64,000 nt of DNA from Parcubacteria group bacterium GW2011_GWA2_40_23 (GCA_000996245.1 LBYP01000002.1:5352-69351); one strand, 5' to 3'. Shown: positions 3,864-47,473, counted from the first letter of the stretch. Notes: generated by a model not told the origin, from the letters alone. Numbers and translations: made by a program.

Positions 3864-4706
3864 ATGATAGACACTCATGCCCATGTTAATTTTAGCACCT
3901 TTAAAGATGATGCTGATGCAGTAATTCAATCAGCTTTAGATAAAAAAATTGCTATTATTAATGTTGGGTCGCAAATCAGCACTAGTCGTCGTGCCGTCGA
4001 GTTGGCCGCTAAGTATCCTCGTGTGTTTGCAGCTATTGGTTTACATCCGATTCAATTACAGGATGAAGAAGTAATTGAGGAGGGAATCACTTTCACTACA
4101 CGGAAAGAAGAGTTTAACTACTCAACATACAAAGAGTTGGCTAAACAGAAACATGTCATCGCTATTGGTGAGACTGGTTTGGATTATTACCATATTCAAG
4201 AAAGGCCTGAATTTAAAGAGATTGTTGAAGATCAGAAGAAAGTTTTTCATCAACATATAGATTTGGCAAATGAAATGAAATTGCCCATGATCATTCATAC
4301 CCGAAGTGGTAAAAATAATAGTGATGCGGCGTGCATCGATATTCTCTCGGAGTTAAGAAAAAATAAACCTAAATATGGTGGAGTTATGCATTGCTATGCT
4401 GGTCCGCCTGAATTGATTAAGGATTTTGTGGCCCTGGATATGTATATTAGTTTTAACGGTATTTTAACTTTTGATAAAACGGGACTCATCGAAAAAATCT
4501 TGTTCTCAACACCCGAAGATCGAATTCTAACTGAAACCGATTGTCCTTATCTAACTCCTGCGCCATATAGAGGCAAACGTAATGAACCGGCCTATGTGGA
4601 TTTTGTAGTTTCTAAAATCGCTGAACTAAAAAATCGTGAATTTGCTGAAATTGATCTTTTAACGACCAGAAACGCAGAACGACTTTTTCATATCGCTTTA
4701 CAATAG
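3864..4706 (+). CDS. tatD: TatD-family metal-dependent hydrolase/DNase
   Basis: MIDTHAHVNF N-terminal HxH metal motif, GETGLDYY, ~280 aa. Confidence 0.85.
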   Translation: MIDTHAHVNFSTFKDDADAVIQSALDKKIAIINVGSQISTSRRAVELAAKYPRVFAAIGLHPIQLQDEEVIEEGITFTTRKEEFNYSTYKELAKQKHVIAIGETGLDYYHIQERPEFKEIVEDQKKVFHQHIDLANEMKLPMIIHTRSGKNNSDAACIDILSELRKNKPKYGGVMHCYAGPPELIKDFVALDMYISFNGILTFDKTGLIEKILFSTPEDRILTETDCPYLTPAPYRGKRNEPAYVDFVVSKIAELKNREFAEIDLLTTRNAERLFHIALQ

Positions 4707-4770
4707 GATTTTATGATCAAGCTTCGTATTGTGACTTATAAACAAGAATGCTTGATTTTTTTTTATTTTC

Positions 4771-5097
4771 ATGATAGATTGTAGGTGCTTTTCTATACCT
4801 ATGCAAAATTCTAAGAATGAGAAAGTTTGGTGGCAACCGGCCATCGAAATCTTTGTTCAAGTCTCTGGATGGATTGTATTCCCGCTACTCATCGGTATTT
4901 ATTTAGGCCGATGGTTACAGGAAAAATGGGGACATGAACCGTGGATATATATAGGTTGTGTTGCGGCTGCTTTCATTATTACAAATGTGGGTTTAATACT
5001 GATTGTTTTAAAGGCGGCCAAGAAAATGCAAAAAGTCATCGACGAATCCGAAAAACAAGTTCAGAATCACAAAGAGACTGAGCAAGTAAAAAAATAA
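4771..5097 (+). CDS. AtpZ/AtpI-like small membrane protein preceding atpB (alternative start ATG 4801)
   Basis: Two hydrophobic helices; positioned immediately upstream of atpB as in many atp operons. Confidence 0.5.
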   Translation: MIDCRCFSIPMQNSKNEKVWWQPAIEIFVQVSGWIVFPLLIGIYLGRWLQEKWGHEPWIYIGCVAAAFIITNVGLILIVLKAAKKMQKVIDESEKQVQNHKETEQVKK

Positions 5098-5100
5098 TAT

Positions 5101-6006
5101 ATGGCTCAAAGTGGTCACGCGACAACTGAAGTGCAAGAAATAGAAACTGCTCAAACAGAAGAGGCAGTTACGCTTGGTCACAATTCTACGGATGCAAAAA
5201 CAGAAGTTTCGCACGAAGCTACTTTAGCGGCAGAACCAATTGCTCATTTTGGTGCTTTCCCAATTACAAATTCTTTATTAAATACCTGGATAGTTGTCGC
5301 TATCCTTTTTGTTTTTGCCATTGTTTTACGATCTAAATTGAAAATAATTCCAAAGGGTTTGCAGAATCTATTTGAAATTGTAGTTGATGGTGCCTTGAAT
5401 CTGTGCGACTCAGTAACTAATGACCGCAAAAAAACCTTAAAAGTTTTTCCAATCGTTTTTAGTTTCTTTATATTCATTTTAATTGCTAATTGGATGGGTT
5501 TAGTCCCGGGAATTGGTTCAATCGGATTTATTGAAACTGAAGGAGCTCATAGTATTTTTGTCCCATATTTTCGTGGTGGTACGGCCGATTTAAATACAAC
5601 ATTAGCTTTAGCTTTGATTGCAGTTATTGGTTCGAATATTTTCGGTATTATAGCAGTGGGCGGCTGGAAGTATTTTAATAAATTTGTAAATCTAAAAATT
5701 TTGGCTCGAATCCCATTTACGATAAAAAAGGATCCAAGTGTCATCATTGTTAACCCTATTAAGTTTTTTGTGGGTATTATAGAAATTATCGGTGAAGTGG
5801 CAAAAATTGCTTCGCTCTCTTTTCGGCTTTTTGGAAATGTTTTTGCTGGCGAGGTTCTACTTTCATCATTAGCTGTTATTTTGGCCTTTGGATTACCAAT
5901 ACCTTTTATGTTTTTGGAAGTTATAGTAGGTGTTATTCAGGCATTAATATTTGGCATGTTGACTTTGGTTTATTTCAGCATTGCCATGACTGAAGAAGAA
6001 CATTAA
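5101..6006 (+). CDS. atpB: F0F1 ATP synthase subunit a
   Basis: Polytopic membrane protein with the conserved LSFRLFGNVFAGE arginine motif. Confidence 0.9.
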   Translation: MAQSGHATTEVQEIETAQTEEAVTLGHNSTDAKTEVSHEATLAAEPIAHFGAFPITNSLLNTWIVVAILFVFAIVLRSKLKIIPKGLQNLFEIVVDGALNLCDSVTNDRKKTLKVFPIVFSFFIFILIANWMGLVPGIGSIGFIETEGAHSIFVPYFRGGTADLNTTLALALIAVIGSNIFGIIAVGGWKYFNKFVNLKILARIPFTIKKDPSVIIVNPIKFFVGIIEIIGEVAKIASLSFRLFGNVFAGEVLLSSLAVILAFGLPIPFMFLEVIVGVIQALIFGMLTLVYFSIAMTEEEH

Positions 6007-6066
6007 TAAAGTGAGTAAGCTTGTAAGCTAGTAAGTGAAATAAGCAAGTCAAGGACTCGCTTGAAA

Positions 6067-6111
6067 CTTATCTCGTTTACCCTGCACCCAAAGGCAGTTT
6101 GTGGTGCGGGG
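6067..6111. repeat. 45-bp repeat copy 2 (inverted relative to 2185-2229)
   Basis: cttatctcgtttaccctgcacccaaaggcagtttgtggtgcgggg is the exact reverse complement of 2185-2229. Confidence 0.85.
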
Positions 6112-6163
6112 CTTACGGCTTATCTCGCTATAAAATAAGAGTGATAAACCAAGCAGACGTTAA

Positions 6164-6418
<255 letters not shown>

Positions 6419-6488
6419 TTTGTTCTTAGATTACTCTGCTCATTTGAGCAGGGTAGTAAAGAGTAAATTATAAAATATAAATATTTAT

Positions 6489-7004
6489 ATGGATGATTTA
6501 ATAAAAACATTTCACATCGATTGGAAATTACTTATTGCGCAAATAATTAATTTTGGCATTGTGGTGGTTGTTTTGGGCGTATTTGCTTTGAAGCCATTAA
6601 TTAAAATGATGAAAGAGAGGGAAGAAAAGATTTCTGATGGGATAAAACATGCCGAAGAAATGGAAGAAAAGATTAAGGAAGTTGCTAAACTTAAAGAAGA
6701 AGAAATAAAACAAGGGAGAAAAGAAGCTCAAGTTTTAATTGCACAGGCAGAAAAGAAAGCGGAAGATTTACGACAAGAAAAAATTAAAAAAACTATCACT
6801 GAAATTGAAAAAATGGCCATAGATGCTCGTGGTCGTATCCGTGAAGAACGTGACGAGATGATTAAGAGTGTCAAGGATGAACTCGGAGCTTTAATTGCAA
6901 CCGCTTTAAACCGGGTTATGAGTAATGTTATTTCAGAAAAAACACATACACAGGTAATTGATGATGTTATTAAAGATCTTGAAAAAGAAGCCATTACCAA
7001 ATAA
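6489..7004 (+). CDS. atpF: F0F1 ATP synthase subunit b
   Basis: N-terminal TM helix followed by a long charged coiled coil; operon position. Confidence 0.85.
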   Translation: MDDLIKTFHIDWKLLIAQIINFGIVVVVLGVFALKPLIKMMKEREEKISDGIKHAEEMEEKIKEVAKLKEEEIKQGRKEAQVLIAQAEKKAEDLRQEKIKKTITEIEKMAIDARGRIREERDEMIKSVKDELGALIATALNRVMSNVISEKTHTQVIDDVIKDLEKEAITK

Positions 7005-9216: not shown

Positions 9217-10170
9217 ATGGCTGGTGGAACAAGAGAATTAAAACGTCGTATCAAATCTGTTGCTAGTACTCAAAAGGTAACTAAGGCAATGGAAATGGTC
9301 GCTGCATCAAAAATGCGTCGCGCCATTAATTCGGTTTTGGCTACACGCGATTACTCTAATCTTGCTTGGGCGACTATTATGAACTTGGCACAAAGAACAG
9401 ACTCGGCTTTGCATCCATTATTAGCCAAAAAAGATAAAGTCGAAAGTGTTTGCTTGATTCTAATCAGTTCAAACCGTGGACTTTGCGGTGGATTTAATAT
9501 GCAAGTTGTTCAAAAGGCTATTAACTCAATCAAAAAACACGAAGAGAATGTTAAAGTTACAGATGTAATTACCATGGGAACAAAGGGCCGAGACATTATT
9601 CGTGGTTTTAAATTTAATGTTGCAGCTGATTTTAAAAAACAAGATTTAACTTTAAGAGTTTCCGATGTTTACGCAGTAGCTCATTTGATCATAAAAGATT
9701 TTACTTCTGGGAAATACGATAAAGTTTTTGTGGCTTTTACAGATTTTGTTTCAACTTTAAAGCAAGAACCGCGCGTTAAACAATTATTACCGATCGATCA
9801 AGAACCAGATGAATATCTTGGTGTAGTTGGAAAGAGTGCAGGCGTTGGTACTACAAAAAAGTTTATTCAAGCCAAAGCTGAAAAATATTTGAAAAAAGGC
9901 GAATATTCTTATGAATATGTTTTCGAACCTAATGCTAAAACTGTTTTAGAAGAAATGTTGCCACGTTTAATCGAAACTCAGATCTATCAGGCTGTTTTGG
10001 AATCTGAAGCATCCGAACACAGTGCCAGAATGTTCTCTATGCGCAATGCTTCTGAAGCTGCTTCGGACATGATTAGCGATTTATCATTATCATATAACCG
10101 TGCTCGTCAAGCTGGTATTACGCAGGAAATTGCGGAAATCAGTTCTGCGGCTGAATCTTTAAAAAAATAA
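9217..10170 (+). CDS. atpG: F0F1 ATP synthase subunit gamma
   Basis: N-terminal LKRRIKSVxSTQKVTKAMEMVAASKMRRA and C-terminal ITQEIAEI motifs. Confidence 0.9.
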   Translation: MAGGTRELKRRIKSVASTQKVTKAMEMVAASKMRRAINSVLATRDYSNLAWATIMNLAQRTDSALHPLLAKKDKVESVCLILISSNRGLCGGFNMQVVQKAINSIKKHEENVKVTDVITMGTKGRDIIRGFKFNVAADFKKQDLTLRVSDVYAVAHLIIKDFTSGKYDKVFVAFTDFVSTLKQEPRVKQLLPIDQEPDEYLGVVGKSAGVGTTKKFIQAKAEKYLKKGEYSYEYVFEPNAKTVLEEMLPRLIETQIYQAVLESEASEHSARMFSMRNASEAASDMISDLSLSYNRARQAGITQEIAEISSAAESLKK

Positions 10171-10189
10171 TTCAATTTAAAAATAGTAA

Positions 10190-11563
<1,374 letters not shown>

Positions 11564-12118: not shown

Positions 12119-12616
12119 ATGGTGATTCTAGATTACATTTTGCTTGGTATCATTATCCTCTTGGGAATCTTAGGATTAAGAAGGGGACTAATTCAATCAG
12201 TTGGATCAATCATCGGCATTATTGTGGGAACGCTTGTGGCGAGTCGTTTTTATCCGCTGGTTGCAGATTGGTTTGGCGGATCTAATTTAACAACTTTGCT
12301 AACATTTATTGTAATTTTTAGCATAACTGTTAAACTGGTCAGTATCTTGTTTTGGCTCCTTGGCAAGATCTTTAAGATAATAACCATTCTACCTATAATA
12401 TCGCATTTTGACAGGTTTTTAGGCCTAATTTTAGGGCTTGTAGAAGGGCTGCTAGTCCTCGCAGTGATTCTAAGCTTTTTACTGAAATATCCATTTAACT
12501 ATTGGATAGTAACTCAAATGGGTGCTTCAGTTGTCGCAAAAGTTTTGTTGAAAATCGGGTTTGTGTTTATTCCACTTTTCCCAGATGCTTTGAAGAAAAT
12601 TAAATCATTCATGTAA
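12119..12616 (+). CDS. cvpA: CvpA-family membrane protein
   Basis: N-terminus ILDYILLGIIILLGILGLRRGLIQSVGSIIGIIVG is typical of CvpA; 4 TM helices. Confidence 0.7.
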   Translation: MVILDYILLGIIILLGILGLRRGLIQSVGSIIGIIVGTLVASRFYPLVADWFGGSNLTTLLTFIVIFSITVKLVSILFWLLGKIFKIITILPIISHFDRFLGLILGLVEGLLVLAVILSFLLKYPFNYWIVTQMGASVVAKVLLKIGFVFIPLFPDALKKIKSFM

Positions 12617-12617
12617 T

Positions 12618-13490
12618 ATGTCAAATGTAAAACAGTATAAAAGAAGGGAAAAGGGAAAAGGGATATGGGGTATGGGAGTTAGATCTTCCCTTATACCTTA
12701 CCCCATAATGCTTACCCCAAATAAATTGTTTTTTTGTTTTCTTGCTTTTTTGATTATGCTTACAGGTTGTACTAAAGTAGGTGATTATTCTTTCGTCAAT
12801 TATGGACTTAACACCAAGACCAATGAAATAGTAAAATCCGCAGATGGTCAATCCGTTTCTTGGGTATCACAAGATGTAAGTGGCGAAAAAGTAATGAACA
12901 GAATTTTTTCCGCAACAAACACCGGTAAAAACAAAACAGAACTTTTGAGTATGGAATTAGAGAAGGAACGTTCTTTACGTATTTTAGGTTTTTATCCAGA
13001 GAATAGCGTTTTCGTTTATGCTATCGAATATCAAAATCCAAACTTTGGAGTTGCTGTACAACGAGAAACTTTTTATAAATTTTTTAATGAAGATAATTCA
13101 CACAGTATTGGTAAAGATTATTTACGATTTTTCAAAACAGATCGTGGTGTCATGGGCTTAAGAGTCGGTGATGTCTTAGCTTACTATCAACTATCAATGA
13201 ACAATGCCTATGCGGTTGATTCTAAAAGTAATTACATCCAAGATAGTAAGGTAAAAGCATTATTTACAGATGCACAATTAACTCCTGATCTTAAAAAAAT
13301 TGTCTATACTTTTGAATATGAACCAGCAACTCAAGGCTATAATCAGAATAAGCTAATGGTCAGCGATTTTTATGGGGAGAATCGCAAGGAACTTGTCGCC
13401 TCAGACAAAAGTATTGATATTCTTGAAATGATTGGCAATGATAAAGTTAAGGTCAAAGTCGGGGATGAAGAAAAAGAGTTTTCCTTTTAA
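12618..13490 (+). CDS. Putative lipoprotein (likely true start ATG 12708)
   Basis: Lipobox LTGC after the hydrophobic stretch FFCFLAFLIM. From the in-frame ATG at 12708 the signal peptide is MLTPNKLFFCFLAFLIMLTGC. The upstream 30 codons overlap a G-rich hairpin motif. Confidence 0.6.
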   Translation: MSNVKQYKRREKGKGIWGMGVRSSLIPYPIMLTPNKLFFCFLAFLIMLTGCTKVGDYSFVNYGLNTKTNEIVKSADGQSVSWVSQDVSGEKVMNRIFSATNTGKNKTELLSMELEKERSLRILGFYPENSVFVYAIEYQNPNFGVAVQRETFYKFFNEDNSHSIGKDYLRFFKTDRGVMGLRVGDVLAYYQLSMNNAYAVDSKSNYIQDSKVKALFTDAQLTPDLKKIVYTFEYEPATQGYNQNKLMVSDFYGENRKELVASDKSIDILEMIGNDKVKVKVGDEEKEFSF

Positions 13491-13502
13491 GTAAATTATG
13501 AA

Positions 13503-13533
13503 GAGGCGAGCTAGGCTCGTCTCTTTTTGTTTT
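13503..13533 (+). terminator. Terminator of the lipoprotein gene (sequence re-used right of island B)
   Basis: GAGGCGAGC-tag-GCTCGTCTC followed by TTTTTGTTTT. Confidence 0.7.
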
Positions 13534-13637
13534 CATATAAATATCAATTGTCTAGTAGAGGAGAATATGGATAATTTGTAATTCGTAAAATAATGTTTAA
13601 ATTTAGCTAAAATAAGTAAGTGTCCATATGATTCCTG

Positions 13638-13666
13638 TTGACAAACATAAGAAAGTATGTTATTGT
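13638..13666 (+). promoter_or_regulatory. Sigma70-type promoter of island B
   Basis: TTGACA (13638-13643), 17-nt spacer aacataagaaagtatgt, TATTGT (13661-13666). Confidence 0.6.
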
Positions 13667-13705
13667 TATGGCAATTGAACCTGTGCTACAACGATGGAGG
13701 AATCC

Positions 13706-13990
13706 ATGGATCTGATCGGATTGGACATGAAGGCTCGTCAGGCTCGGGAGAAGTTCACGGTCGTGACCAAGCTGGGTGATGCGGTCTGGACGCCGGCGGA
13801 GATCAACCGACTGGTGCACCAGTACAGAACCATCATCAGCACGCTTCCCAGGATGCCCTCCGTCGCGATTCTCGCGGGAGAGTACTCCAAGGACCAGCTC
13901 GTCGCGTTCCTCGGGACGGACAACTTCACCGTCGAGCTGATGGTCGGTCGCCAGAACCCCAAGCTGCCGTTCAGCGCTCCGATGCTCTGA
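13706..13990 (+). CDS. Island B1: 94-aa GC-rich protein of unknown function, paralog of B2
   Basis: GGAGGA ends 4 nt before ATG 13706. G/C-ending codons dominate. About 45% identity to B2 over ~67 aa (KFTVVT..G..VW..E..RL....PR..SVAI.AGE.SK...V..LGTD.F.VEL.V). Confidence 0.7.
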   Translation: MDLIGLDMKARQAREKFTVVTKLGDAVWTPAEINRLVHQYRTIISTLPRMPSVAILAGEYSKDQLVAFLGTDNFTVELMVGRQNPKLPFSAPML

Positions 13991-14020
13991 GCGCGGCAAG
14001 TTCGAAAGAGAGGAACGGAC

Positions 14021-14248
14021 ATGCTGGTTCTGTTGACTCCTGCCAAGTTCACCGTCGTGACCTTGTTCGGTTTTGGGGTGTGGCATAAGGACGAGGTTCA
14101 ACGTCTGGCGAACAGGCTGAGAGCCTGCGTCTACACGTATCCAAGGAGGCTTTCGGTCGCGATCATCGCGGGAGAGCACTCCAAGGCTTCGATCGTGGAC
14201 GTCCTCGGTACGGACGACTTCGGCGTCGAGCTGAAGGTCAAGTGCTAG
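14021..14248 (+). CDS. Island B2: 75-aa GC-rich protein, paralog of B1
   Basis: AGAGAGGAA SD-like motif 5-6 nt before ATG 14021; same conserved blocks as B1; followed directly by terminators. Confidence 0.7.
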   Translation: MLVLLTPAKFTVVTLFGFGVWHKDEVQRLANRLRACVYTYPRRLSVAIIAGEHSKASIVDVLGTDDFGVELKVKC

Positions 14249-14282
14249 AAACCAGTCACTCAAGGTTTCAAGAGGCGAGCAG

Positions 14283-14351
14283 CTTCGTAGTTGCTCGCCT
14301 TTTAAATTTTAGGAAATGAGACAACTCGTCTCTTTTTGTTTATTATGCTAA
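14283..14351 (+). terminator. Two tandem terminators closing island B
   Basis: AGGCGAGC-N12-GCTCGCCT + TTTTAAATTTT (14283-14320), then GAGAC-N5-GTCTC + TTTTTGTTT (14328-14351). Their outer halves, AAGAGGCGAGC and CTCGTCTCTTTTTGTTT, duplicate the host terminator at 13501-13532. Confidence 0.7.
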
Positions 14352-14364
14352 TATTTACTTGAAT

Positions 14365-17337
14365 ATGAGCTTATTAGAATCATCAAACAAAGAGCAGCTT
14401 TCAGCTATTATGCATGAGGCTGGGCCTCAGCTGATCGTTGCCGGAGCGGGGACGGGCAAGACGCGAGTAATTACAGCCCGTATAGCTTATTTAATTACAG
14501 AAAAAAACATAAATGTCGACGAAATTCTGGCTTTGACTTTTACTGACAAAGCAGCCGAAGAAATGGAAGAACGTGTAGATAAAATGTTGCCTTATGGCTA
14601 TGTCGACTTGTGGATTTCAACTTTTCACTCCTTTTGTGACAAACTATTAAAACGCCACGCTCTCGATATTGGACTCTCTAACAATTATAAACTTATAAAC
14701 GAAACTGAGGCTTGGTTACTGATTAAAAAGAATTTAGCGCGTTTTGATTTGGATTATTACCGTCCGCTTGGTAATCCAACCAAATTTATTCATGCTTTGC
14801 TAAAACATTTTTCGCGTTGTAAAGATGAGGGCATTTCGGCCGAAGAATATTTGGAATTTGCTGATGGTTTAAAATTGGACTTGGATGTAACTGATTATGT
14901 AAAAAAATTAGATTTGCCAGAAGACTTTGCGGAACTGAAGAAAGAAGAAAAACAAGCGTTGCTCAAACAGGAAATTATTCGAATTAATGAAATCGCTAAG
15001 GCATATCACACATATCAACAAATATTAATCGAAAATGATTGCTTGGATTTTGGCGATTTGCACAATTACGCCATTAAACTTTTTAAAGATCGTCCCTTGA
15101 TTTTAGATAAATATCGACGTCAATTTAAATATATACTTGTCGATGAATTTCAGGACACAAATTTTGTTCAATATGAACTCATCAAGCTTTTAGCAGCTCC
15201 CAAAAATAATTTGACAGTGGTGGGGGATGATGACCAGTCAATTTATAAATTCCGAGGAGCTTCTATTAGTAATATCATGCAATTTAAAGAAGATTACCCA
15301 AACGCGCAGGAAGTTGTCTTAACGGAAAACTATCGATCGGCGCAGGAAATTTTAGATTTGTCATATAATTTTATTAAGCAAAATGATCCTAATCGGTTGG
15401 AAGCGAAGTTGAATATCAATAAAAAATTAAAATCGAATAAAACTGAGCAGGGAGTTATCGATCACAAACATTTTGAAACTATCGATGCTGAAGCGCAGTT
15501 TGTTATAAGTCAGATTCGAGAAATACAAAAAGTAACTCAGTGCGAGTGGAAACAATTTGCCATATTGGTACGTGCCAATGAAAGCGCTAATATTTTTATT
15601 AGTTATTTAGATTCCGCAAATATTCCATATCAGTTCTTAGCATTACGTGGATTGTATACGAAGCCAGTCATTGTTGATTTGCTCAACTACCTAAAGTTGT
15701 TAGATGATTATCATGAGGGAGCTTCGGTTTATCGATTGTTAAATTTCCCATGTTTCAAATTAAAAACTGATCAAATCATCAAAATTGTTCATTATGCAAA
15801 GCAAAAAAGTTTTTCATTGTACGACACGTTGAAGAAGATTGTTATAATTCCTGGTATTGAAATGGAAACAATAACTCAGGTTGGGAAAATATATGCTCAG
15901 GTTGAAGCTGATACTGCTTTGGCACAAAAGAAACGTCCGACCGAAGTCTTGCTAAATTTTTTATACACTTCCGGTTATTTAGAACACGTAAAAAATTTGG
16001 ACGAAAAAATTGCTAAAGAAAATTTAGATTATATCCAACAGTTTTTTCAAAAAGTTAAAGAGATAGAAACCACTTACGAAGATGCGCGCATTAAAGATAT
16101 AGTCGAGGTTTTTGATTTAGAATTGCAATCTGGCGAAGCTGGGCGATTGGCTTTTGATGTTGAAACAGGTCCAGACATGGTAAAGGTCATGACAGTGCAT
16201 GGATCAAAAGGTTTGGAGTTTGACTATGTTTTCTTGCCAAATCTTGTCGACCGTAAATTCCCAACAGACGAACGCAAAGAGGCTATCGAGATTCCAGCAG
16301 CCTTGATTGAAGAAAAACTGCCCGAAGGTAATTTCCATTTAGAAGAAGAACGCCGACTTTTTTATGTGGCGATGACTCGAGCGCGACGTGGTTTATTTTT
16401 TACATCGGCAGAGGATTATGGCGGAGTACGCAAAAAAAGGTTATCGAGATTTTTAATAGAAATGGGTTATAAAAAAGATTATGACATCCAATCGACTGAA
16501 ACTATTTTAATCAAGCCAAGTAAATCATCAGCAGTTGATAAATTTGTTTATGAATTACCAAAAAGATTTAGCTTTTCGCAAATTGCAACTTACGAAAAAT
16601 GTCCTTTACAATACAAATACGGAAATATTTTAAAAATCCCAGCTTTTGGCAGTCATTATTTTACTTTTGGTACAATTATCCACTCAACTTTGCAGAAATT
16701 TCTAGAAGAATCGTATCAAGTTAATAATAATGTTCAAGAAGATTTATTTAGCAATATAAAAAAGACGATTAAAAAGGGAACTTTGCCCTTGGATCGATTG
16801 TATCAAGTTTATGATGATGTTTGGTTTGATGATTGGTTCCAAGATCCTAAGCAGAAAGAAGAATATTATAAAAAAGGAAAAGCTTTGCTGAAAAGTTTTC
16901 ATGCTGATTTTAATTCAGAGTTACCAGAAGTAAGAAATCTCGAAATATCATTTAAATTGCCAGTCGGCCCATATTTCTTTTCTGGTAGAATTGATCGAGT
17001 CGATAATTTAGAGTCTGGTTTAGTGCAGATCATTGATTATAAAACCGGGCAAGCCAAGGATGATAAATTAACAACAGATGACAAACGTCAACTTTTATTT
17101 TATCAGATTGCGGCCGAGGAAGCCTTAAAGTTGAAAGTTGAAAAGATGACATACCATTATTTAGAAGAAAATAAGAAAATATCTTTTATGGGTAAAGAAA
17201 AAGACAAGGAAGAATTAAAGAAAAGATTTATTGAAGATATTGAATTGATCAAGGCACAGAAATTCGAAGCCACGCCAAGTCCTTATGTTTGTGGTAGTTG
17301 CGATTATCGAAATATTTGTGAGCATAAAAAATTGTAA
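14365..17337 (+). CDS. UvrD/PcrA-type superfamily-1 helicase fused to a C-terminal PD-(D/E)XK, Cas4/AddB-like 4-Cys nuclease
   Basis: Walker A GAGTGKT, motif II VDEFQDTN, C-terminal Cys cluster KCPLQ ... CGSCDYRNIC (CX2CX5C). Start at ATG 14365 (track start 14359 is TTG). Confidence 0.85.
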   Translation: MSLLESSNKEQLSAIMHEAGPQLIVAGAGTGKTRVITARIAYLITEKNINVDEILALTFTDKAAEEMEERVDKMLPYGYVDLWISTFHSFCDKLLKRHALDIGLSNNYKLINETEAWLLIKKNLARFDLDYYRPLGNPTKFIHALLKHFSRCKDEGISAEEYLEFADGLKLDLDVTDYVKKLDLPEDFAELKKEEKQALLKQEIIRINEIAKAYHTYQQILIENDCLDFGDLHNYAIKLFKDRPLILDKYRRQFKYILVDEFQDTNFVQYELIKLLAAPKNNLTVVGDDDQSIYKFRGASISNIMQFKEDYPNAQEVVLTENYRSAQEILDLSYNFIKQNDPNRLEAKLNINKKLKSNKTEQGVIDHKHFETIDAEAQFVISQIREIQKVTQCEWKQFAILVRANESANIFISYLDSANIPYQFLALRGLYTKPVIVDLLNYLKLLDDYHEGASVYRLLNFPCFKLKTDQIIKIVHYAKQKSFSLYDTLKKIVIIPGIEMETITQVGKIYAQVEADTALAQKKRPTEVLLNFLYTSGYLEHVKNLDEKIAKENLDYIQQFFQKVKEIETTYEDARIKDIVEVFDLELQSGEAGRLAFDVETGPDMVKVMTVHGSKGLEFDYVFLPNLVDRKFPTDERKEAIEIPAALIEEKLPEGNFHLEEERRLFYVAMTRARRGLFFTSAEDYGGVRKKRLSRFLIEMGYKKDYDIQSTETILIKPSKSSAVDKFVYELPKRFSFSQIATYEKCPLQYKYGNILKIPAFGSHYFTFGTIIHSTLQKFLEESYQVNNNVQEDLFSNIKKTIKKGTLPLDRLYQVYDDVWFDDWFQDPKQKEEYYKKGKALLKSFHADFNSELPEVRNLEISFKLPVGPYFFSGRIDRVDNLESGLVQIIDYKTGQAKDDKLTTDDKRQLLFYQIAAEEALKLKVEKMTYHYLEENKKISFMGKEKDKEELKKRFIEDIELIKAQKFEATPSPYVCGSCDYRNICEHKKL

Positions 17338-17370
17338 AAAAAGGGCCACGCAAACTTGTGTCTGCGTGGC
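17335..17370 (-). terminator. Terminator of island C (also sits directly after the helicase stop)
   Basis: Reverse strand GCCACGCA-N10-TGCGTGGC followed by CCCTTTTTTTT. The T-tract is present only in the minus orientation. Confidence 0.7.
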
Positions 17371-17396
17371 TCCTTGCGACGAGTTGTGACTCGGCG

Positions 17397-18377
17397 CTAG
17401 TTGGTGAGCACGTGGCTGATGTCCATGTCCGGACTGACGATCAGCTTCTGTGCCGTGTTCTCGCCGATGACCTCGATCGCCTCGTTCGGACCCGTACCCA
17501 GGTTCGGGATGAACCCGATCTGGATGTACGAGTACTGCTCGAGGGGATCGACGTCGCAGCGCACGTCGAAGGCCGTCGTGGTGCCCTTGGGTAGGAAGAT
17601 GTCCGTCAGGTCATGGAAGACGAGCTGCGCGTTCCATCCCTCGGTGTTTACGTAGGGTTGACCCTGGTAGGCCAGGGTGTGGCCACCCGAGATCAGGCTG
17701 CAGTTGCGCACCTTCTCGAAGTGGTCCCCGGTCATCATCATCGACAGCGTGACCTCGGTGAGAACGCCGTCCTCGGCGTAGGCCGTGTCTTCGGCGTCGA
17801 CCATCAGGTAGAACGTGAACAAGTGGACCTGCGAACCTTCGACGAGCAGGTTGCTGGTTTCCTTCTTCCAGACCATGACGGTCGAGAATTGCGGCTCCAT
17901 GTACGGCGCGCAGACTTCTTCGACGGAGCAGTAGAACGTACGGTTGCCCCTGGCGATGGCGTCGTAGAAGGCTTGGAAGTTGCTGTGCCAGACGTTCATC
18001 ATCGCGATCTGCTTCTGCGCCGCGATCCGTCGCAGCTTGTAGGTCGGGATCATGGCGATGGGGTATTTGGGGTCTCCCGCCAAGGCCAGCTTGATCTTCC
18101 AGGTGTTGGTCGTCGCGTTCTGCGTCGCCTTGGCCAGGAACTGGCCCTCGTACTGGAAGTAGTAGCTGATGTTGTCGGTGAAGTTGGTCCACCCGACGCA
18201 GTCGGTGCCGTACCAGTCCGGCAACTGGCCGGTCAGGTTGAAGTAGTCGATGCTTTCCTGGTTGTACGTCTCGGCGACGTACTTGAGGTCGGCGAAGGTC
18301 TGGGGCGGACCGCCCCCGGCGTACGCGGCACTCGAGAAGCACAGGACGGCGAGCAGGGCGATGAGGGTCTTCTTCAT
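17397..18377 (-). CDS. Island C: secreted 326-aa GC-rich protein of unknown function
   Basis: Signal peptide MKKTLIALLAVLCFSSAAYA. GGAGGA lies 7 nt before the ATG. Near-exclusive NNC/NNG codon usage (checked codon by codon). Several Cys residues; no motif I can name. Confidence 0.8.
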   Translation of the reverse strand: MKKTLIALLAVLCFSSAAYAGGGPPQTFADLKYVAETYNQESIDYFNLTGQLPDWYGTDCVGWTNFTDNISYYFQYEGQFLAKATQNATTNTWKIKLALAGDPKYPIAMIPTYKLRRIAAQKQIAMMNVWHSNFQAFYDAIARGNRTFYCSVEEVCAPYMEPQFSTVMVWKKETSNLLVEGSQVHLFTFYLMVDAEDTAYAEDGVLTEVTLSMMMTGDHFEKVRNCSLISGGHTLAYQGQPYVNTEGWNAQLVFHDLTDIFLPKGTTTAFDVRCDVDPLEQYSYIQIGFIPNLGTGPNEAIEVIGENTAQKLIVSPDMDISHVLTN

Positions 18378-18447
18378 CTCGGATTCCTCCTTCGGACGTT
18401 TCGAACCTTAGATCGATGGTGTACATCACCAATCTCTCTTTGGCACC

Positions 18448-18476
18448 ATTCTAGCATGTTTTTAATAAATTGTCAA
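18448..18476 (-). promoter_or_regulatory. Sigma70-type promoter of island C
   Basis: Reverse strand TTGACA (18476-18471), 17-nt spacer atttattaaaaacatgc, TAGAAT (18453-18448); ~64-nt leader. Confidence 0.7.
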
Positions 18477-18499
18477 ACCTATTTTCATCGTTTTGCGAG

Positions 18500-18520
18500 C
18501 CTGCCTGCCGGCCAGGCAGG
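18500..18520. other. Isolated GC hairpin ~25 nt upstream of the island C -35 box
   Basis: CCTGCCTG-ccggc-CAGGCAGG, 8-bp perfect stem, no T-tract on either strand. Confidence 0.4.
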
Positions 18521-18661
18521 GAGCACTTTCGTTAAAAAGCGACGTGGCAATCTCTAATTCGATTTCTAATTAATCAAATCAATAGGTTATACATTTTTAT
18601 TCGTAAATTTAGCAAAATACTAGATACTGTCTAAGCGAACCTAACTGCAAATCGAGGATAC

Positions 18662-18696
18662 TAATCATGATAATCATGAAAATCATAGTTAATCAT
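18662..18696 (-). repeat. Phased array of four ATGATTA-like heptamers abutting the island D terminator
   Basis: taatcat at 18662, 18671, 18690 and aaatcat at 18680 (period 9-10 bp). Homologous to the array at 299-344. Confidence 0.6.
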
Positions 18697-18699
18697 GGC

Positions 18700-18735
18700 A
18701 AAAAAGAGCCCCACCGTTCGCGACGAACGGTGGGG
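18700..18735 (-). terminator. Intrinsic terminator of island D
   Basis: Reverse strand CCCCACCGTTCG-tcg-CGAACGGTGGGG (12-bp perfect stem) followed by CTCTTTTTT. Confidence 0.8.
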
Positions 18736-18740
18736 CAGGG

Positions 18741-19364
18741 CTAGAAGTTCCAGACCAGGCGCAGGTACAGCACGTGGTCACCCGCGATCTCCGGCGTGAA
18801 GTCGTAGGCGACCCAGATTCGGCCCGCGCCGAGCAAGATCGAGGGGCCGATGGCCGCCTCGTCGAACGTCTTCTCGGAGAAGAAGTTCTCCTGGACGATG
18901 CCGAACCCAGCGATGTTGCCTGGCTTCATCCAGTCGAGGGTGGTCAGCGTGTAGTAGTTCCGCTGCACGTGCCCCTTGTCGCCGTCGACAGGGAAGTAGA
19001 CGTCGCCCTCGACGCACAGGAGCAGGTCGCTTGGCAAGGGCTGCGTGAGCCAGATGCTCGCGAGAGCGGACATGCCGCCGTCGTTGGTCATCCAGAGACC
19101 TCCCAGGAGCTTGAGGTTCGTCTTCGTCGACAGGACGCTCATCTCCGGCCCGAAGTAGCCGAAGATCATGGAGTTGCCGCGCATTGACACCAGGCCGGTG
19201 GCGTGGGCGTAGATGCCGCCCGTGATGTTCTCGCTGAGCGTGAACGGGGAGAAGGTTCGGCCCAGGGTGACCAGGAACTGGCCGTTGGACTCGACCTTGG
19301 CCTCGGCGGCCGTGGGGATGATCATCGCACACAGCAACAGGATCACGAGCAGGAAGCGCTTCAT
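18741..19364 (-). CDS. Island D: 207-aa secreted protein with outer-membrane beta-barrel-like features
   Basis: Start placed at MKRF (ATG 19364) with GGAGG 5 nt upstream. Signal peptide MKRFLLVILLLCAMIIPTAAEA. Gly/aromatic-rich alternating pattern. C-terminus YLRLVWNF has hydrophobic residues at positions -1, -3, -5, -7 and a terminal Phe (classical OMP beta-signal). Confidence 0.7.
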   Translation of the reverse strand: MKRFLLVILLLCAMIIPTAAEAKVESNGQFLVTLGRTFSPFTLSENITGGIYAHATGLVSMRGNSMIFGYFGPEMSVLSTKTNLKLLGGLWMTNDGGMSALASIWLTQPLPSDLLLCVEGDVYFPVDGDKGHVQRNYYTLTTLDWMKPGNIAGFGIVQENFFSEKTFDEAAIGPSILLGAGRIWVAYDFTPEIAGDHVLYLRLVWNF

Positions 19365-19409
19365 CGAAGCCTCCAAAGTGGTGTGACGTCCCGTGAAACA
19401 GGACATTCT

Positions 19410-19437
19410 AATTTATCATAAATAATAAAAAAGTCAA
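19410..19437 (-). promoter_or_regulatory. Promoter of island D
   Basis: Reverse strand TTGACT (19437-19432), 16-nt spacer, TGaTAAATT extended -10 (hexamer 19415-19410). The -35 box ends 1 nt from the ATG of the divergent host gene at 19439. Confidence 0.55.
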
Positions 19438-19438
19438 G

Positions 19439-19762
19439 ATGCAAGGCATTAGTGGTATACTAAAATCAACTTTCAATAAAAGAAGTGTCCTCAGCAAACA
19501 AGTGCAATCTGGGATGATTGTTGAGTTTGTTAATGAACTAATTCATGAATACTGGGGCAAAAAGGGCGCTGAACAGGCAAAGGCTAAATTTATAAAAAAT
19601 AAAATTTTAACTATATTTACTGTAAATGCAGGCATGTCGCAGGAAATTAAATTTAAACAAAATAAAATATTAGAAACAGTTAACACTAGGTTTGATGAGC
19701 GGGTACTTAATCAATTAAAAATCGTTGCCGGCGGAATTGACAAAGGCGATGATATACCGTAA
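19439..19762 (+). CDS. DUF721/DciA-like small protein (host-type composition except the last ~13 codons)
   Basis: 107 aa with pattern W..VVG-like EYWGKKGAEQAKAKFIKNKILTIFTVNAGMSQEIKF, typical of DUF721. The 3' end, GTTGCCGGCGGAATTGACAAAGGCGATGATATACCGTAA, is GC-richer and contains the island E -35 box. Confidence 0.5.
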   Translation: MQGISGILKSTFNKRSVLSKQVQSGMIVEFVNELIHEYWGKKGAEQAKAKFIKNKILTIFTVNAGMSQEIKFKQNKILETVNTRFDERVLNQLKIVAGGIDKGDDIP

Positions 19763-19797: not shown

Positions 19798-20115
19798 ATG
19801 GATGCACGACAAAAGGTCGTGGCAGTGTTCGATCTTCCGCACGGTGAAGGTCAGGTCGATCTGATGGTCGACATGGCACTTGAGTCCAGCTGGACTGGCC
19901 AAGGAATCGATACTTCGTACTTCATGTTCCACAAGCCGCACTGCGGCGGTCCCATGCGGCCGATCAAGGTGGCGGACAAGAAGATGGTTCTGTACTGCAG
20001 CGGTTGCGTGTTGCGTCTTCAGCTTCTGATCATGAAACTGCCTACGAACCTGGGCGAACTCGGTGAAGCGATCAACGAGACCTGCACGCATTCGGATCTG
20101 CCCTCACGTTTCTAA
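19798..20115 (+). CDS. Island E: 105-aa GC-rich protein with Zn-ribbon-like Cys/His spacing
   Basis: AAGGAGG lies 5 nt before the ATG. HKPHCGGP ... YCSGC (H/C-x..-CxxC). G/C-ending codons. Confidence 0.7.
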   Translation: MDARQKVVAVFDLPHGEGQVDLMVDMALESSWTGQGIDTSYFMFHKPHCGGPMRPIKVADKKMVLYCSGCVLRLQLLIMKLPTNLGELGEAINETCTHSDLPSRF

Positions 20116-45103: not shown

Positions 45104-45220
45104 TACCTGTTATTCAAGTGTTTACCTTAGCTTTTTGAGGCTGAGTTAATTTCCGCCTTTTAAAGGTGTAGTGAACACCACAAGTGATCTGTTCCCCAAC
45201 CATCCGTGAGGAGGTGCCTG

Positions 45221-46735
45221 ATGCTGTACCAGAAACTGCTCGATGCGAAGATCGGAGTCGGTCCGGCCACCATCACCAAGCTCGACGAGGCGGGTCTCAA
45301 GACCGCCGAGGCCATCCTGGCCGCCGGGCTCGACGGGCTGCGCGCCATCAAGGTCTTCCCGCCGATCGCGGGCAAGATCCTCGAGGTCGCGCTCGCCAAC
45401 CCGACGCCCGCCACCGAGATCGAGGCCGCGTCGGCCCCGATCATCCTCCACCCCGACGACGCGGCCAAGGTGGCCGAGGTCGCCCCCACCACCACGAAAA
45501 ACGAGACCCCCGCGGTCCTGGTCAAGCGGCAGACGGTGTTCGCCGCCAAGCTCGAGGAGGCCGCCAAGGCCAACGGTACGACGGTGGAGGAGCTCCGCGC
45601 CGCCGCCAAGGCCAACGTGCCGGCCGAGAAGCCGGTCGTGGTGACCCACAAGACCCTGGCCAAGCCCGAGAACGAGCACGTGAACTTCATCGACGTCGGG
45701 ATCGAAACCCCGACCGAGTTCACGAGCCCCGTGCGTCTGCGCGACTTCTTCGACAAGCTGCCCAAGGGGCAGGTGCCGGACAGCGCGCGCTACATCAAGA
45801 ACCTCTTCCCCGTCTGCGCGATGTGTCGCGCCGCGGGCAGCACGAAGACCCTCCAGATCGACCACGTGCACGTGCTCGTGGTCACCCGTCTCGACGGCAG
45901 CGTCAACAGCGGTTTGTTCTGCGACGACCACATCACGGTGGCGTACGGACAGGCCAAGGACCTGGTCAAGGACGGGAAGCTGAAGGAGGTCAAGATCATC
46001 TGGCTGCGCGAGGCGTGGGCCAACCTGACCCGCGCGTACAGGGCGCAGGTCGACGAGGCGCGCGAAGAGCGCTACCGCAAGGAGCGCGCCGACCGCCGCA
46101 CGGCCGCCCTCCGGGCCGTGATGGAGGATCTCGGCTCGGTGACCAGCGAGCACTGGATGACCGACGAGCAGCTCGGCAGCTACGTGTCGCCCATGGACGT
46201 CCCGGTCTTCACGTGCGGACTCGAGGCGAAGCAGGCCCGTGAGCTGCACCTCCTGCCCAACGACAAGGAGAAGGGTACGTTCAAGGGGCGCTGGGGGCGG
46301 TTCTACGACGAGTACGGCATCCGGCTCGTCATGCGGCCCCCGCAGGACCTGACCCAGCACAACACGCTCGTCCAGCACTTGCGGGACGACGCCAAGGCCG
46401 CCCAGGCCACGCCGTTCTTCCCCGTCGTCCTGGTCCGCCGTTACTTCGGTGACGACCTGGGCTGGCGCTACCTGGCGATCCACGAACTGGTCATCGAGGA
46501 GTTCGTGGCGACCTACGAGCAGGCGCACAACTTCAAGGTGCGCACCGGGGCCATGGCCTACGAGTGGCTGACCCGTCGCTGGGAGGTCCAGCGCGAAGAA
46601 GCCGCCAAGGCCGCGGCGCAGGCGTTCGCCAAGAGCGACGAAGGCAAGGCGCTGAACGCCTTCCTCAACGCCGCCCCGGACGACGAGGCCGCCGCCGACA
46701 GCGCCCTGTTGGCCGGCAGCGCCCACAAGAAGTAA
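45221..46735 (+). CDS. Island G: 504-aa GC-rich protein with N-terminal helix-hairpin-helix pair and a CxxC..DH..N..CxxH (HNH-like) motif
   Basis: GAGGAGG lies 6 nt before ATG 45221. HhH-like KIGVGPATITKLDEAG and LRAIKVFPPIAGKILE. Cys/His motif VCAMCRAAGSTKTLQIDHVHV...VNSGLFCDDH (nt 45815-45931). Strong G/C third-position bias only in this frame. Confidence 0.75.
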   Translation: MLYQKLLDAKIGVGPATITKLDEAGLKTAEAILAAGLDGLRAIKVFPPIAGKILEVALANPTPATEIEAASAPIILHPDDAAKVAEVAPTTTKNETPAVLVKRQTVFAAKLEEAAKANGTTVEELRAAAKANVPAEKPVVVTHKTLAKPENEHVNFIDVGIETPTEFTSPVRLRDFFDKLPKGQVPDSARYIKNLFPVCAMCRAAGSTKTLQIDHVHVLVVTRLDGSVNSGLFCDDHITVAYGQAKDLVKDGKLKEVKIIWLREAWANLTRAYRAQVDEAREERYRKERADRRTAALRAVMEDLGSVTSEHWMTDEQLGSYVSPMDVPVFTCGLEAKQARELHLLPNDKEKGTFKGRWGRFYDEYGIRLVMRPPQDLTQHNTLVQHLRDDAKAAQATPFFPVVLVRRYFGDDLGWRYLAIHELVIEEFVATYEQAHNFKVRTGAMAYEWLTRRWEVQREEAAKAAAQAFAKSDEGKALNAFLNAAPDDEAAADSALLAGSAHKK

Positions 46736-46855: not shown

Positions 46856-47473
46856 ATGAATGCGAAACATCTTCCTCCGCCCACTCCCACGACGCTCTCC
46901 GAAGCGTTTTGGCCCCTGTTCATGACGAACAAAGTGATGGTGCGTTTTGTCGGTGCGTATATCTGCTTCGGCGTGGCAGATGACAGCAACCGACTACTCG
47001 TAGTGTATGCACACGACACTGCCAGCCGATTGCATCTTCCTACACAGGAAGCAATTGCTCGAGCGTTCCCTCTGCGGAATGCCAAACAACAAGAATACAC
47101 CGGACCACATGATCTGCCAGTGTCGTACAGTGACATTCAACGAGTTCGCAACGTGATGCGTTATGAGTTTCTTCAGGAAAACCGGCGCGTCTTACTGCTT
47201 GTTTCGACTCCTGAGGAGTCGGTAGTTGAAAACCAGGAACAACTCATGTTCATCCAATGGAGTAGACCGAACCCACTTCAAATTGCTCGCATCGTCGAAA
47301 CTATTGGTGCGGATCGTGTCCACGTCGTACGAAAAAATGCGCTGGAAACGCGCCTCCTGGTGGAGTTGAAACCCAATGAACGATTGAAGTTCTCTGTGAC
47401 CGGTTGCCACTTCAGCAGCCCCTTTGCAACTGCGGCTCTGTTGCCGGTGCAGTGCGACACCTGCACTGCTTGA
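46856..47473 (+). CDS. Island H: 205-aa protein of unknown function (intermediate GC)
   Basis: AAGGAG lies 6 nt before the ATG. Bounded by its own promoter and terminator. No recognisable motif. C-terminal Cys pair CDTC. Confidence 0.65.
   Translation: MNAKHLPPPTPTTLSEAFWPLFMTNKVMVRFVGAYICFGVADDSNRLLVVYAHDTASRLHLPTQEAIARAFPLRNAKQQEYTGPHDLPVSYSDIQRVRNVMRYEFLQENRRVLLLVSTPEESVVENQEQLMFIQWSRPNPLQIARIVETIGADRVHVVRKNALETRLLVELKPNERLKFSVTGCHFSSPFATAALLPVQCDTCTA

Follow-up and report, generated by a model that had tools for sequence, protein, structure and literature searches.

Island B, a segment at positions 13638–14341 of the window (the whole stretch of 64 kb of DNA that was analysed), contains two small genes, B1 and B2, which are shown at the level of sequence to be real and so far unannotated. 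Both belong to a rare protein family that is undescribed and new to the databases, here named DNPxLPF after its C-terminal motif. Viewed as a whole, the island is explained best, and on balance probably correctly, as an imported cassette of this family, in which B2 arose from B1 and whose products form an oligomeric binding or regulatory module.

Organisation and composition of the cassette

Island B is, as the earlier note had it, a bicistronic cassette for two small soluble proteins that are paralogues of each other, and the unit is self-contained. The island holds the elements then listed, and B1 (13706–13990, 94 aa) as well as B2 (14021–14248, 75 aa) are open reading frames on the + strand with exactly the boundaries and lengths assigned to them. 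The island is likewise as GC-rich as had been claimed, with a GC content of 0.56–0.61 compared to about 0.34 in the flanks. This excess resides almost wholly at third codon positions (GC3 of 0.84 for B1 and 0.79 for B2 versus 0.26–0.36 in host genes), whereas GC1 and GC2 are ordinary and close to the host values. The junctions of the cassette are found in two further, independent public assemblies: ENA contig L001 (578 nt) is 100% identical from the 3′ end of B1 through B2 and the two terminators into the AT-rich flank, and a Logan contig of 1542 nt displays the same four-gene order as the window. Accordingly, the junctions are neither an assembly artefact nor a chimera. The cassette matches no Rfam RNA family at gathering thresholds and gives only chance-level matches at E≤1, and no tRNA is present in the 64 kb of the window.

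About 40 nt upstream of B1, a sigma-70-type promoter-like site, TTGACA-17-TATTGT with a TG before the −10 element, is located at 13638–13666 (+). With 10 of 12 consensus matches it is the top-scoring site of a 2-kb scan, in which six promoter-like sites were found versus 3.9 expected. Since such sites are frequent here, the promoter is plausible rather than proven; the single promoter proposed in the earlier note is thus present as a site and ranks highest, but as a consensus match it falls short of the certainty with which it was put forward. The assignment of one Shine-Dalgarno sequence to each gene, in contrast, stands as it was made. Read from the sequence, GGAGG (13696–13700, +) lies 5 nt before the start codon of B1 and AGAGG (14009–14013, +) lies 7 nt before the ATG of B2. 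An alternative in-frame ATG at position 13694 would extend B1 to 98 aa, the version given by gene callers. The start at 13706 is favoured, because the family alignment begins at the residues MDL and because GGAGG is situated 5 nt upstream of it.

The cassette is closed by two terminators, both of which turned out to be true hairpins followed by a T-run, as had been predicted. T1 (14262–14310, +) has a core stem formed by 14270–14284 and 14289–14303, which is followed by TTTTAAATTTT, and T2 (14313–14341, +) consists of a GAGAC/GTCTC hairpin followed by TTTTTGTTT. The double-terminator region (14249–14345) folds at −35.9 kcal/mol with a z-score of −5.6, which was equalled by none of 200 shuffled sequences. 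On the other side of the cassette, a terminator scan located T0 (13501–13532, +; −18 kcal/mol, z −5.0), the terminator hairpin of the upstream 290-aa gene. Two parts of T0, AAGAGGCGAGC and CTCGTCTCTTTTTGTTT, have exact second copies at 14270 and 14325, which are the only further occurrences within the window. The 5′ arm of T0 (11 nt, exact) recurs as the opening of T1 at the far side of the cassette, and the 3′ arm together with its T-run (17 nt, exact) recurs as the close of T2. This split repeat of T0 around the cassette is the trace left by an insertion or recombination event at the terminator.

The DNPxLPF family and the relation of B2 to B1

The family, which comprises about 65 clusters at 50% identity, was defined by an exhaustive search of 1.84 billion representatives with a profile of B1 and B2. 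The search yielded 67 matches, of which 65 are genuine, B1 and B2 included; the remaining two matched in multiple stretches and were dropped as low-complexity or repeat artefacts. A word-indexed homology search with B1 and B2 returned no proteins beyond these two. Nearly all genuine members are 83–110 aa long, with about 93 aa being typical, and most cover almost the entire profile. Their consensus reads xDLxGM...R...KFTVLxR..G.W...E...L...L...V...P..P..LIL.GE...E.I...LG...F....V.G.DNP.LPF.P. with an N-terminal helix of the form MDLxGM and a tail of the form G-x-[DQ]-N-P-x-L-P-F. Five residues, Thr18, Trp28, Gly58, Leu87, and Pro88, are near-invariant (at least 90%), and Phe74 is conserved to 85%. 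The C-terminal residues Leu87, Pro88, and Phe89 are conserved to 83–94% and represent the best-conserved motif of the family, in which the mean column identity is 27%. With a median pI of 6.4 the family is not uniformly basic.

B1 and B2 alone gave no match in Pfam (E≤1) or NCBIfam, and matches to PHROGs were found at E>0.2 only. Comparison of all 65 members with Pfam, NCBIfam and PADLOC resulted in scattered chance-level matches (best E 0.004) and none were obtained with PHROGs, while a sequence-profile search of the PDB returned a single chance match (E=0.15). No source carries a meaningful name for the family, which is absent from Pfam, NCBIfam, PHROGs, PADLOC and the PDB. The claim that B1 and B2 belong to no known family therefore holds in the sense that neither they nor their 63 homologues have a curated match; they are, however, not orphans but part of a wider unnamed family.

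B1 is a full-length member, in which the ferredoxin-like core is preceded by the N-terminal helix and followed by a tail with the sequence GRQNPKLPF. It has the length of the family and matches the family HMM from end to end (106.8 bits, HMM positions 1–92), with E-values of 1.5e-52 against the profile of B1 and B2, which includes B1 itself, and 1.1e-25 against the 65-sequence profile. Its N-terminal and C-terminal family-specific ends read MDLIGLD and GRQNPKLPF, respectively, and the maximum Kyte-Doolittle hydropathy over 19 aa is 0.78. AlphaFold2 with the 65-sequence alignment modelled B1 with a pLDDT of 92.9 and a pTM of 0.81 (an alignment of B1 and B2 alone gave a pLDDT of 46 and was uninformative). 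In the confidently predicted fold, a helix at the N-terminus precedes a ferredoxin-like β-α-β-β-α-β core, which is followed by an ordered C-terminal tail. The ferredoxin-like fold itself is common. Searching the PDB and BFVD with the predicted structure by Foldseek, a check that the earlier note had suggested, revealed nothing at E<1e-3.

Family members usually occur as single genes, and all loci except the window, L032 and L033 harbor one copy. In L032 a short, helix-less copy is located directly upstream of a full-length copy within a small operon; as this short copy and B2 are not closely related, the arrangement arose independently. Hence the tandem pairing of a short and a long copy is not a property of the family and has one other instance only. 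The interpretation offered in the earlier note is thus supported in part, and the hetero-oligomer or modulator pair that it suggested would not be a feature of the family as a whole. L033 contains two dispersed copies. In L043 (5998–7804) the ribosomal protein cluster is interrupted between rplB and rpsS by the family member, which is on the opposite strand and accompanied by two genes for membrane proteins, and in L048 (3654–3941) it is located beside rpsF-ssb-rpsR. Members mostly match the composition of their own genome, and those in AT-rich genomes are mostly AT-rich. Locus retrieval with a subset of 20 sequences yielded five metagenome loci and no viral locus, and no copy was detected in plasmids, in phages (tblastn against 50,697 phage records) or in IMG/VR (motif scan).

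B2 is a core-only in-paralogue of B1 with a hydrophobic N-terminus. BLASTP aligns the two proteins without gaps over 65 residues, 35 of which are identical (54%; E=1e-22). The tandem paralogy postulated in the earlier note is thereby borne out and each of the conserved blocks it listed was recovered, but the identity of about 45% over some 67 aa given there was somewhat too low. B2 scores 63.9 bits against the family HMM and matches positions 7–78 only, which identifies it as a truncated member. Spanning the region from the first strand to just past the last strand, it starts with MLVLLTPAKF, ends with VELKVKC and lacks both the N-terminal helix and the C-terminal G-x-DNP-x-LPF tail. Thr18, Trp28, Gly58, and Phe74 are present in both proteins. 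Across the whole family the top match of B2 is B1, which places the duplication in the lineage of the cassette. As judged by these alignments, B2 appears to have arisen by tandem duplication of B1 with the core alone being retained. The first 19–20 residues of B2 reach a 19-aa Kyte-Doolittle maximum of 1.78, compared to values of at most 1.41 in the 63 relatives.

The 65 aligned codons have a pS of 0.31 and a pN of 0.29, from which a Nei-Gojobori dN/dS ratio of about 0.9 follows; this is an upper estimate because codon bias depresses dS. Among identical residues, 26 of 34 codons are identical versus 17.5 expected at saturation, i.e. synonymous sites are unsaturated. In combination, both values indicate fast divergence of the proteins after a fairly recent duplication. 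A ratio of about 0.9 fits relaxed constraint on one copy equally well as divergence for pairing. Of the columns in which the two proteins differ, 24 show the better family fit for B1 and 14 for B2 (p=0.18). The columns favouring B1 are mainly found at the ends of B2; within the core it is often B2 that carries the family-preferred residue.

B1, the 30-nt spacer and B2 share one reading frame, in which the TGA of B1 is the sole stop codon (13706–14248); read-through of this TGA would yield a two-domain protein of about 180 aa. The shared frame is probably a coincidence, since host genes do stop at TGA (5 of 38 ORFs in the window).

Host, insertion site and origin

The cassette is flanked by cvpA, a lipoprotein-like gene and the gene of a 992-aa UvrD/PD-(D/E)XK (AddA/UvrD-type) helicase-nuclease. 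The best relatives of the latter are found in Kuenenbacteria (64%), Falkowbacteria (61%) and other MAGs of Patescibacteria, and the host is a Kuenenbacteria/Falkowbacteria-like, AT-rich member of the Patescibacteria (candidate phyla radiation). The title 'uncultured Gammaproteobacteria bacterium' is borne by several MAGs whose helicase has its closest counterparts in Patescibacteria; as their gene content and GC resemble Patescibacteria, these titles are probably wrong. For the upstream 290-aa gene, the genome collection yielded no relative.

In the seven closest relatives cvpA is located upstream of the helicase gene, and the gap between them, in which unrelated small genes are found, ranges from 98 nt without any gene (L024) to 3360 nt, compared to 1742 nt (12616–14359) in the window. 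None of 30 related loci contains a family member. The order cvpA-helicase-dciA is kept in the closest relatives (L002, L003, L020, L023, L024, and L031), and the second gap, between helicase and dciA (17337–19439 in the window), is also variable (187–828 nt). Because of the varying sizes and the different cargo genes of the window, both gaps are regarded as insertion hotspots. In front of the helicase gene, a TGnTAAnAT element is retained at 14346–14354 (segment 14346–14368), as in L002 (segment 9975–10006) and L024 (segment 9975–10003). Its retention downstream of the cassette places the latter between the terminator of the upstream gene and the promoter of the helicase. The helicase start is likely ATG 14365 rather than TTG 14359, as indicated by comparison with relatives. 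The TGnTAAnAT element, which resembles an extended −10 element, is thus only about 10 nt away from the start codon, suggesting a very short or absent leader. No integrase or transposase was found near the cassette. A reading as an integron cassette was rejected, given the cassette's own promoter, the lack of a nearby integrase and flanking hairpins that are ordinary terminators.

The nearest homologues of B1 are P0003, P0006 and P0005 with 47%, 43% and 39% identity, respectively. Their contigs have GC contents of 50%, 56% and 64%, and their GC3 is comparably high (0.46–0.75). Islands of horizontally transferred genes have been reported to make up as much as 13% of genome length in Patescibacteria and to be exchanged mostly within the phylum (PMC12455944). 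Import, a point on which the earlier note made no comment, is supported by four lines of evidence together: the contrast in GC3, the lack of the cassette in relatives, the variability of the gap and the repeats on either side. We infer that the donor was a GC-richer genome with a DNPxLPF family member.

Five further GC-rich genes with near-host GC1 and GC2 are present in the 64 kb, in which the host GC3 is about 0.3. They are located at 17397–18377 (−, GC3 0.91), 18741–19406 (−, GC3 0.92; 221 aa), 19798–20115 (+, GC3 0.68), 45206–46735 (+, GC3 0.95) and 46856–47473 (+, GC3 0.54). Pfam gives no match for any of them, and the N-termini of two resemble signal peptides. Very roughly, GC-rich stretches account for a tenth of the window. 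One of them, at 321–1280 (0.52–0.56), comprises only short overlapping ORFs on both strands, without a Pfam match or an Rfam match at E≤0.1. No flanking direct repeats were detected at the other GC-rich islands and hence there is no common insertion signature.

The 221-aa gene has a syntenic orthologue of 37% identity in the Kuenenbacteria MAG of locus L002 (13008–13634, −), likewise between helicase and dciA, and no other carrier among the 30 related loci. The GC3 of this orthologue is 0.67 versus 0.34. At 37% identity synonymous sites are saturated, so that one old transfer cannot explain the GC3 of both genes; they were either replaced repeatedly or have maintained GC-rich codons. In the host lineage, a high GC3 is therefore not always the mark of a recent import. 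The persistence of GC-rich codons in the 221-aa gene and its distant orthologue, outside the cassette, is more puzzling than the cassette itself. It is a long shot that B1, B2 and the other GC3-rich genes of the window constitute a class of genes with a GC-rich 'codon dialect' in AT-rich Patescibacteria, with the DNPxLPF family as a mobile regulator that comes as a long/short pair. Translation control, mRNA stability or a role tied to a GC-rich partner organism are possible reasons for such a dialect.

Possible function and comparison with known systems

In an all-against-all comparison of the neighbours within ±4 kb at 15 loci, no recurring neighbour was found, and Pfam scans of unannotated neighbours were blank except for one DUF5317. 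As the homologues have no neighbours in common, the function of the family can be inferred only weakly. In L033 both copies (4673–6957 and 10001–11202) adjoin genes of two-component systems, encoding a response regulator, a HATPase_c protein and a HisKA kinase. This association is the only functional hint and, being confined to a single genome, a weak lead.

In the favoured model, Island B would have been acquired horizontally as a self-contained transcription unit, with promoter, two genes bearing Shine-Dalgarno sequences and double terminator, and would have inserted into the variable gap between cvpA and the AddA/UvrD-type helicase-nuclease gene. B1 would be the complete member, and the imported gene would then have been duplicated in tandem, leaving B2 with the core only. 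The product may be a small cytoplasmic, non-enzymatic binding or regulatory module working as an oligomer, a role which is weakly suggested by analogy to ACT-, PII-, and MzrA-like ferredoxin-fold proteins. B2 could pair with B1 via the face of the sheet that B1 covers by its own termini; alternatively, it could be a diverging spare copy.

A further possibility, to which we give distinctly less weight than to the favoured model, is that B1 alone is functional and that B2 is a decaying remnant of the duplication, open by chance. The loss of both family-specific termini including the best-conserved motif, the dN/dS ratio of about 0.9, an N-terminal hydrophobicity above that of all 63 relatives and the closer fit of B1 to the family (24 versus 14 differing columns, p=0.18) are in line with decay. 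However, the frame of B2 is intact and preceded by a good Shine-Dalgarno sequence, the near-invariant core residues Thr, Trp, and Gly-Glu are kept, family-preferred core residues are often found in B2 where B1 differs, the score against the family HMM still amounts to 63.9 bits, and L032 also retains a short, helix-less copy beside a long one. It is highly improbable that read-through of the B1 stop codon joins the products of the two genes into one protein with tandem domains: translation of 13706–14248 is continuous save for one TGA, but a shared frame has a one-in-three chance, B2 possesses its own Shine-Dalgarno sequence and ATG, TGA is an ordinary stop in the ORFs of the window mentioned above, and genuine family matches are all single-stretch. 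It is hardly conceivable that B1 and B2 are spurious and that an antisense ORF of 218 aa (13607–14263, −), which covers the entire cassette, is the real gene. This reading is effectively refuted by 65 sense-strand homologues, some of them in AT-rich genomes, by the confident predicted fold of the sense product and by the codon-position GC of the sense genes (0.58/0.40/0.84), which fits the + strand, compared to 0.71/0.40/0.55 for the antisense ORF. Since homologues exist for the sense products only, the antisense ORF is a shadow frame. With respect to origin, the GC-richness might not be a mark of import at all, if the lineage keeps GC-rich synonymous codons in particular genes. This is compatible with the high GC3 of both the 221-aa gene and its orthologue in L002 despite saturation, and with GC1 and GC2 near host values in all island genes. 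We nevertheless consider it improbable for the cassette, as none of the relatives has a counterpart of B1 or B2, their nearest homologues stem from GC-rich genomes and have a similarly high GC3, an AT-rich genome mostly goes with an AT-rich family member, and the flanking exact repeats indicate insertion.

The main rival on function is a role in conflict systems, where small immunity, antitoxin or anti-defence proteins travel as solitary mobile cassettes and B1 and B2 would be a pair diversifying against variants of a toxin or nuclease. The sporadic and rare distribution of the family with one to two copies, its fast divergence (27% mean column identity, B1/B2 dN/dS of about 0.9) and its insertion into conserved gene clusters (L043 and L048) would agree with such a role. 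Moreover, L035 adjoins a DNA-modification or defence-like block and an HNH gene, and L033 is located near GmrSD. Tandem paralogous small proteins are usual in the immunity-gene arrays of polymorphic toxin systems, which the arrangement of B1 and B2 resembles. However, at the 15 loci no toxin, nuclease or defence gene is recurrent beside family members and the neighbours are mostly housekeeping genes; matches to PADLOC are at chance level (one member, E=0.023) and to PHROGs are lacking, and the family has no copies in phages, plasmids or IMG/VR. A conflict-system role is therefore judged unlikely.

With about 65 clusters and a confidently predicted fold, the DNPxLPF family is a candidate for a new entry among the domains of unknown function. 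The cassette itself would represent a clean example of gene uptake, with verified junctions, at a conserved hotspot of a streamlined Patescibacteria genome, where the acquired gene was then duplicated and truncated. Should the long and the short protein interact, the pair would provide a simple model of a duplicated small protein evolving a partner. At present, its value lies mainly in annotation and in research on how genes move within the candidate phyla radiation.

Comparison with known systems led to the rejection of three identities on the basis of tested features, namely a toxin-antitoxin pair, a phage moron and MzrA. Type II toxin-antitoxin pairs consist of two different families, a toxin and a DNA-binding antitoxin, whereas B1 and B2 are mutual paralogues, and neither has a Pfam or PADLOC match to a toxin or antitoxin. 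Like phage morons and transferred cassettes of Patescibacteria, Island B is autonomous, has its own promoter and terminator as well as an atypical composition, and is situated between housekeeping genes; unlike morons, it lies outside a prophage and has no PHROG, phage, plasmid or IMG/VR match. MzrA is a periplasmic protein of enterobacteria that is anchored in the inner membrane and modulates the EnvZ/OmpR two-component system. Its structural likeness to the B1 family is weak, sequence similarity is absent and kinase neighbours are found in one locus only; moreover, B1 and its relatives have no hydrophobic segment (maximum 1.41) corresponding to the MzrA anchor. None of the 65 members matches the sequence profiles of ACT domains (PF01842, ACT_n; hmmscan against Pfam, E≤0.1). 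By fold class, and in this respect only, ACT, PII/PstA, CutA and MTH1187/YkoF, which are stand-alone ferredoxin-fold domains with ligand-binding or regulatory roles, may come closest to the predicted structure of B1. An imported accessory cassette of hypothetical proteins is an already known phenomenon in Patescibacteria; the protein family that it carries here is new.
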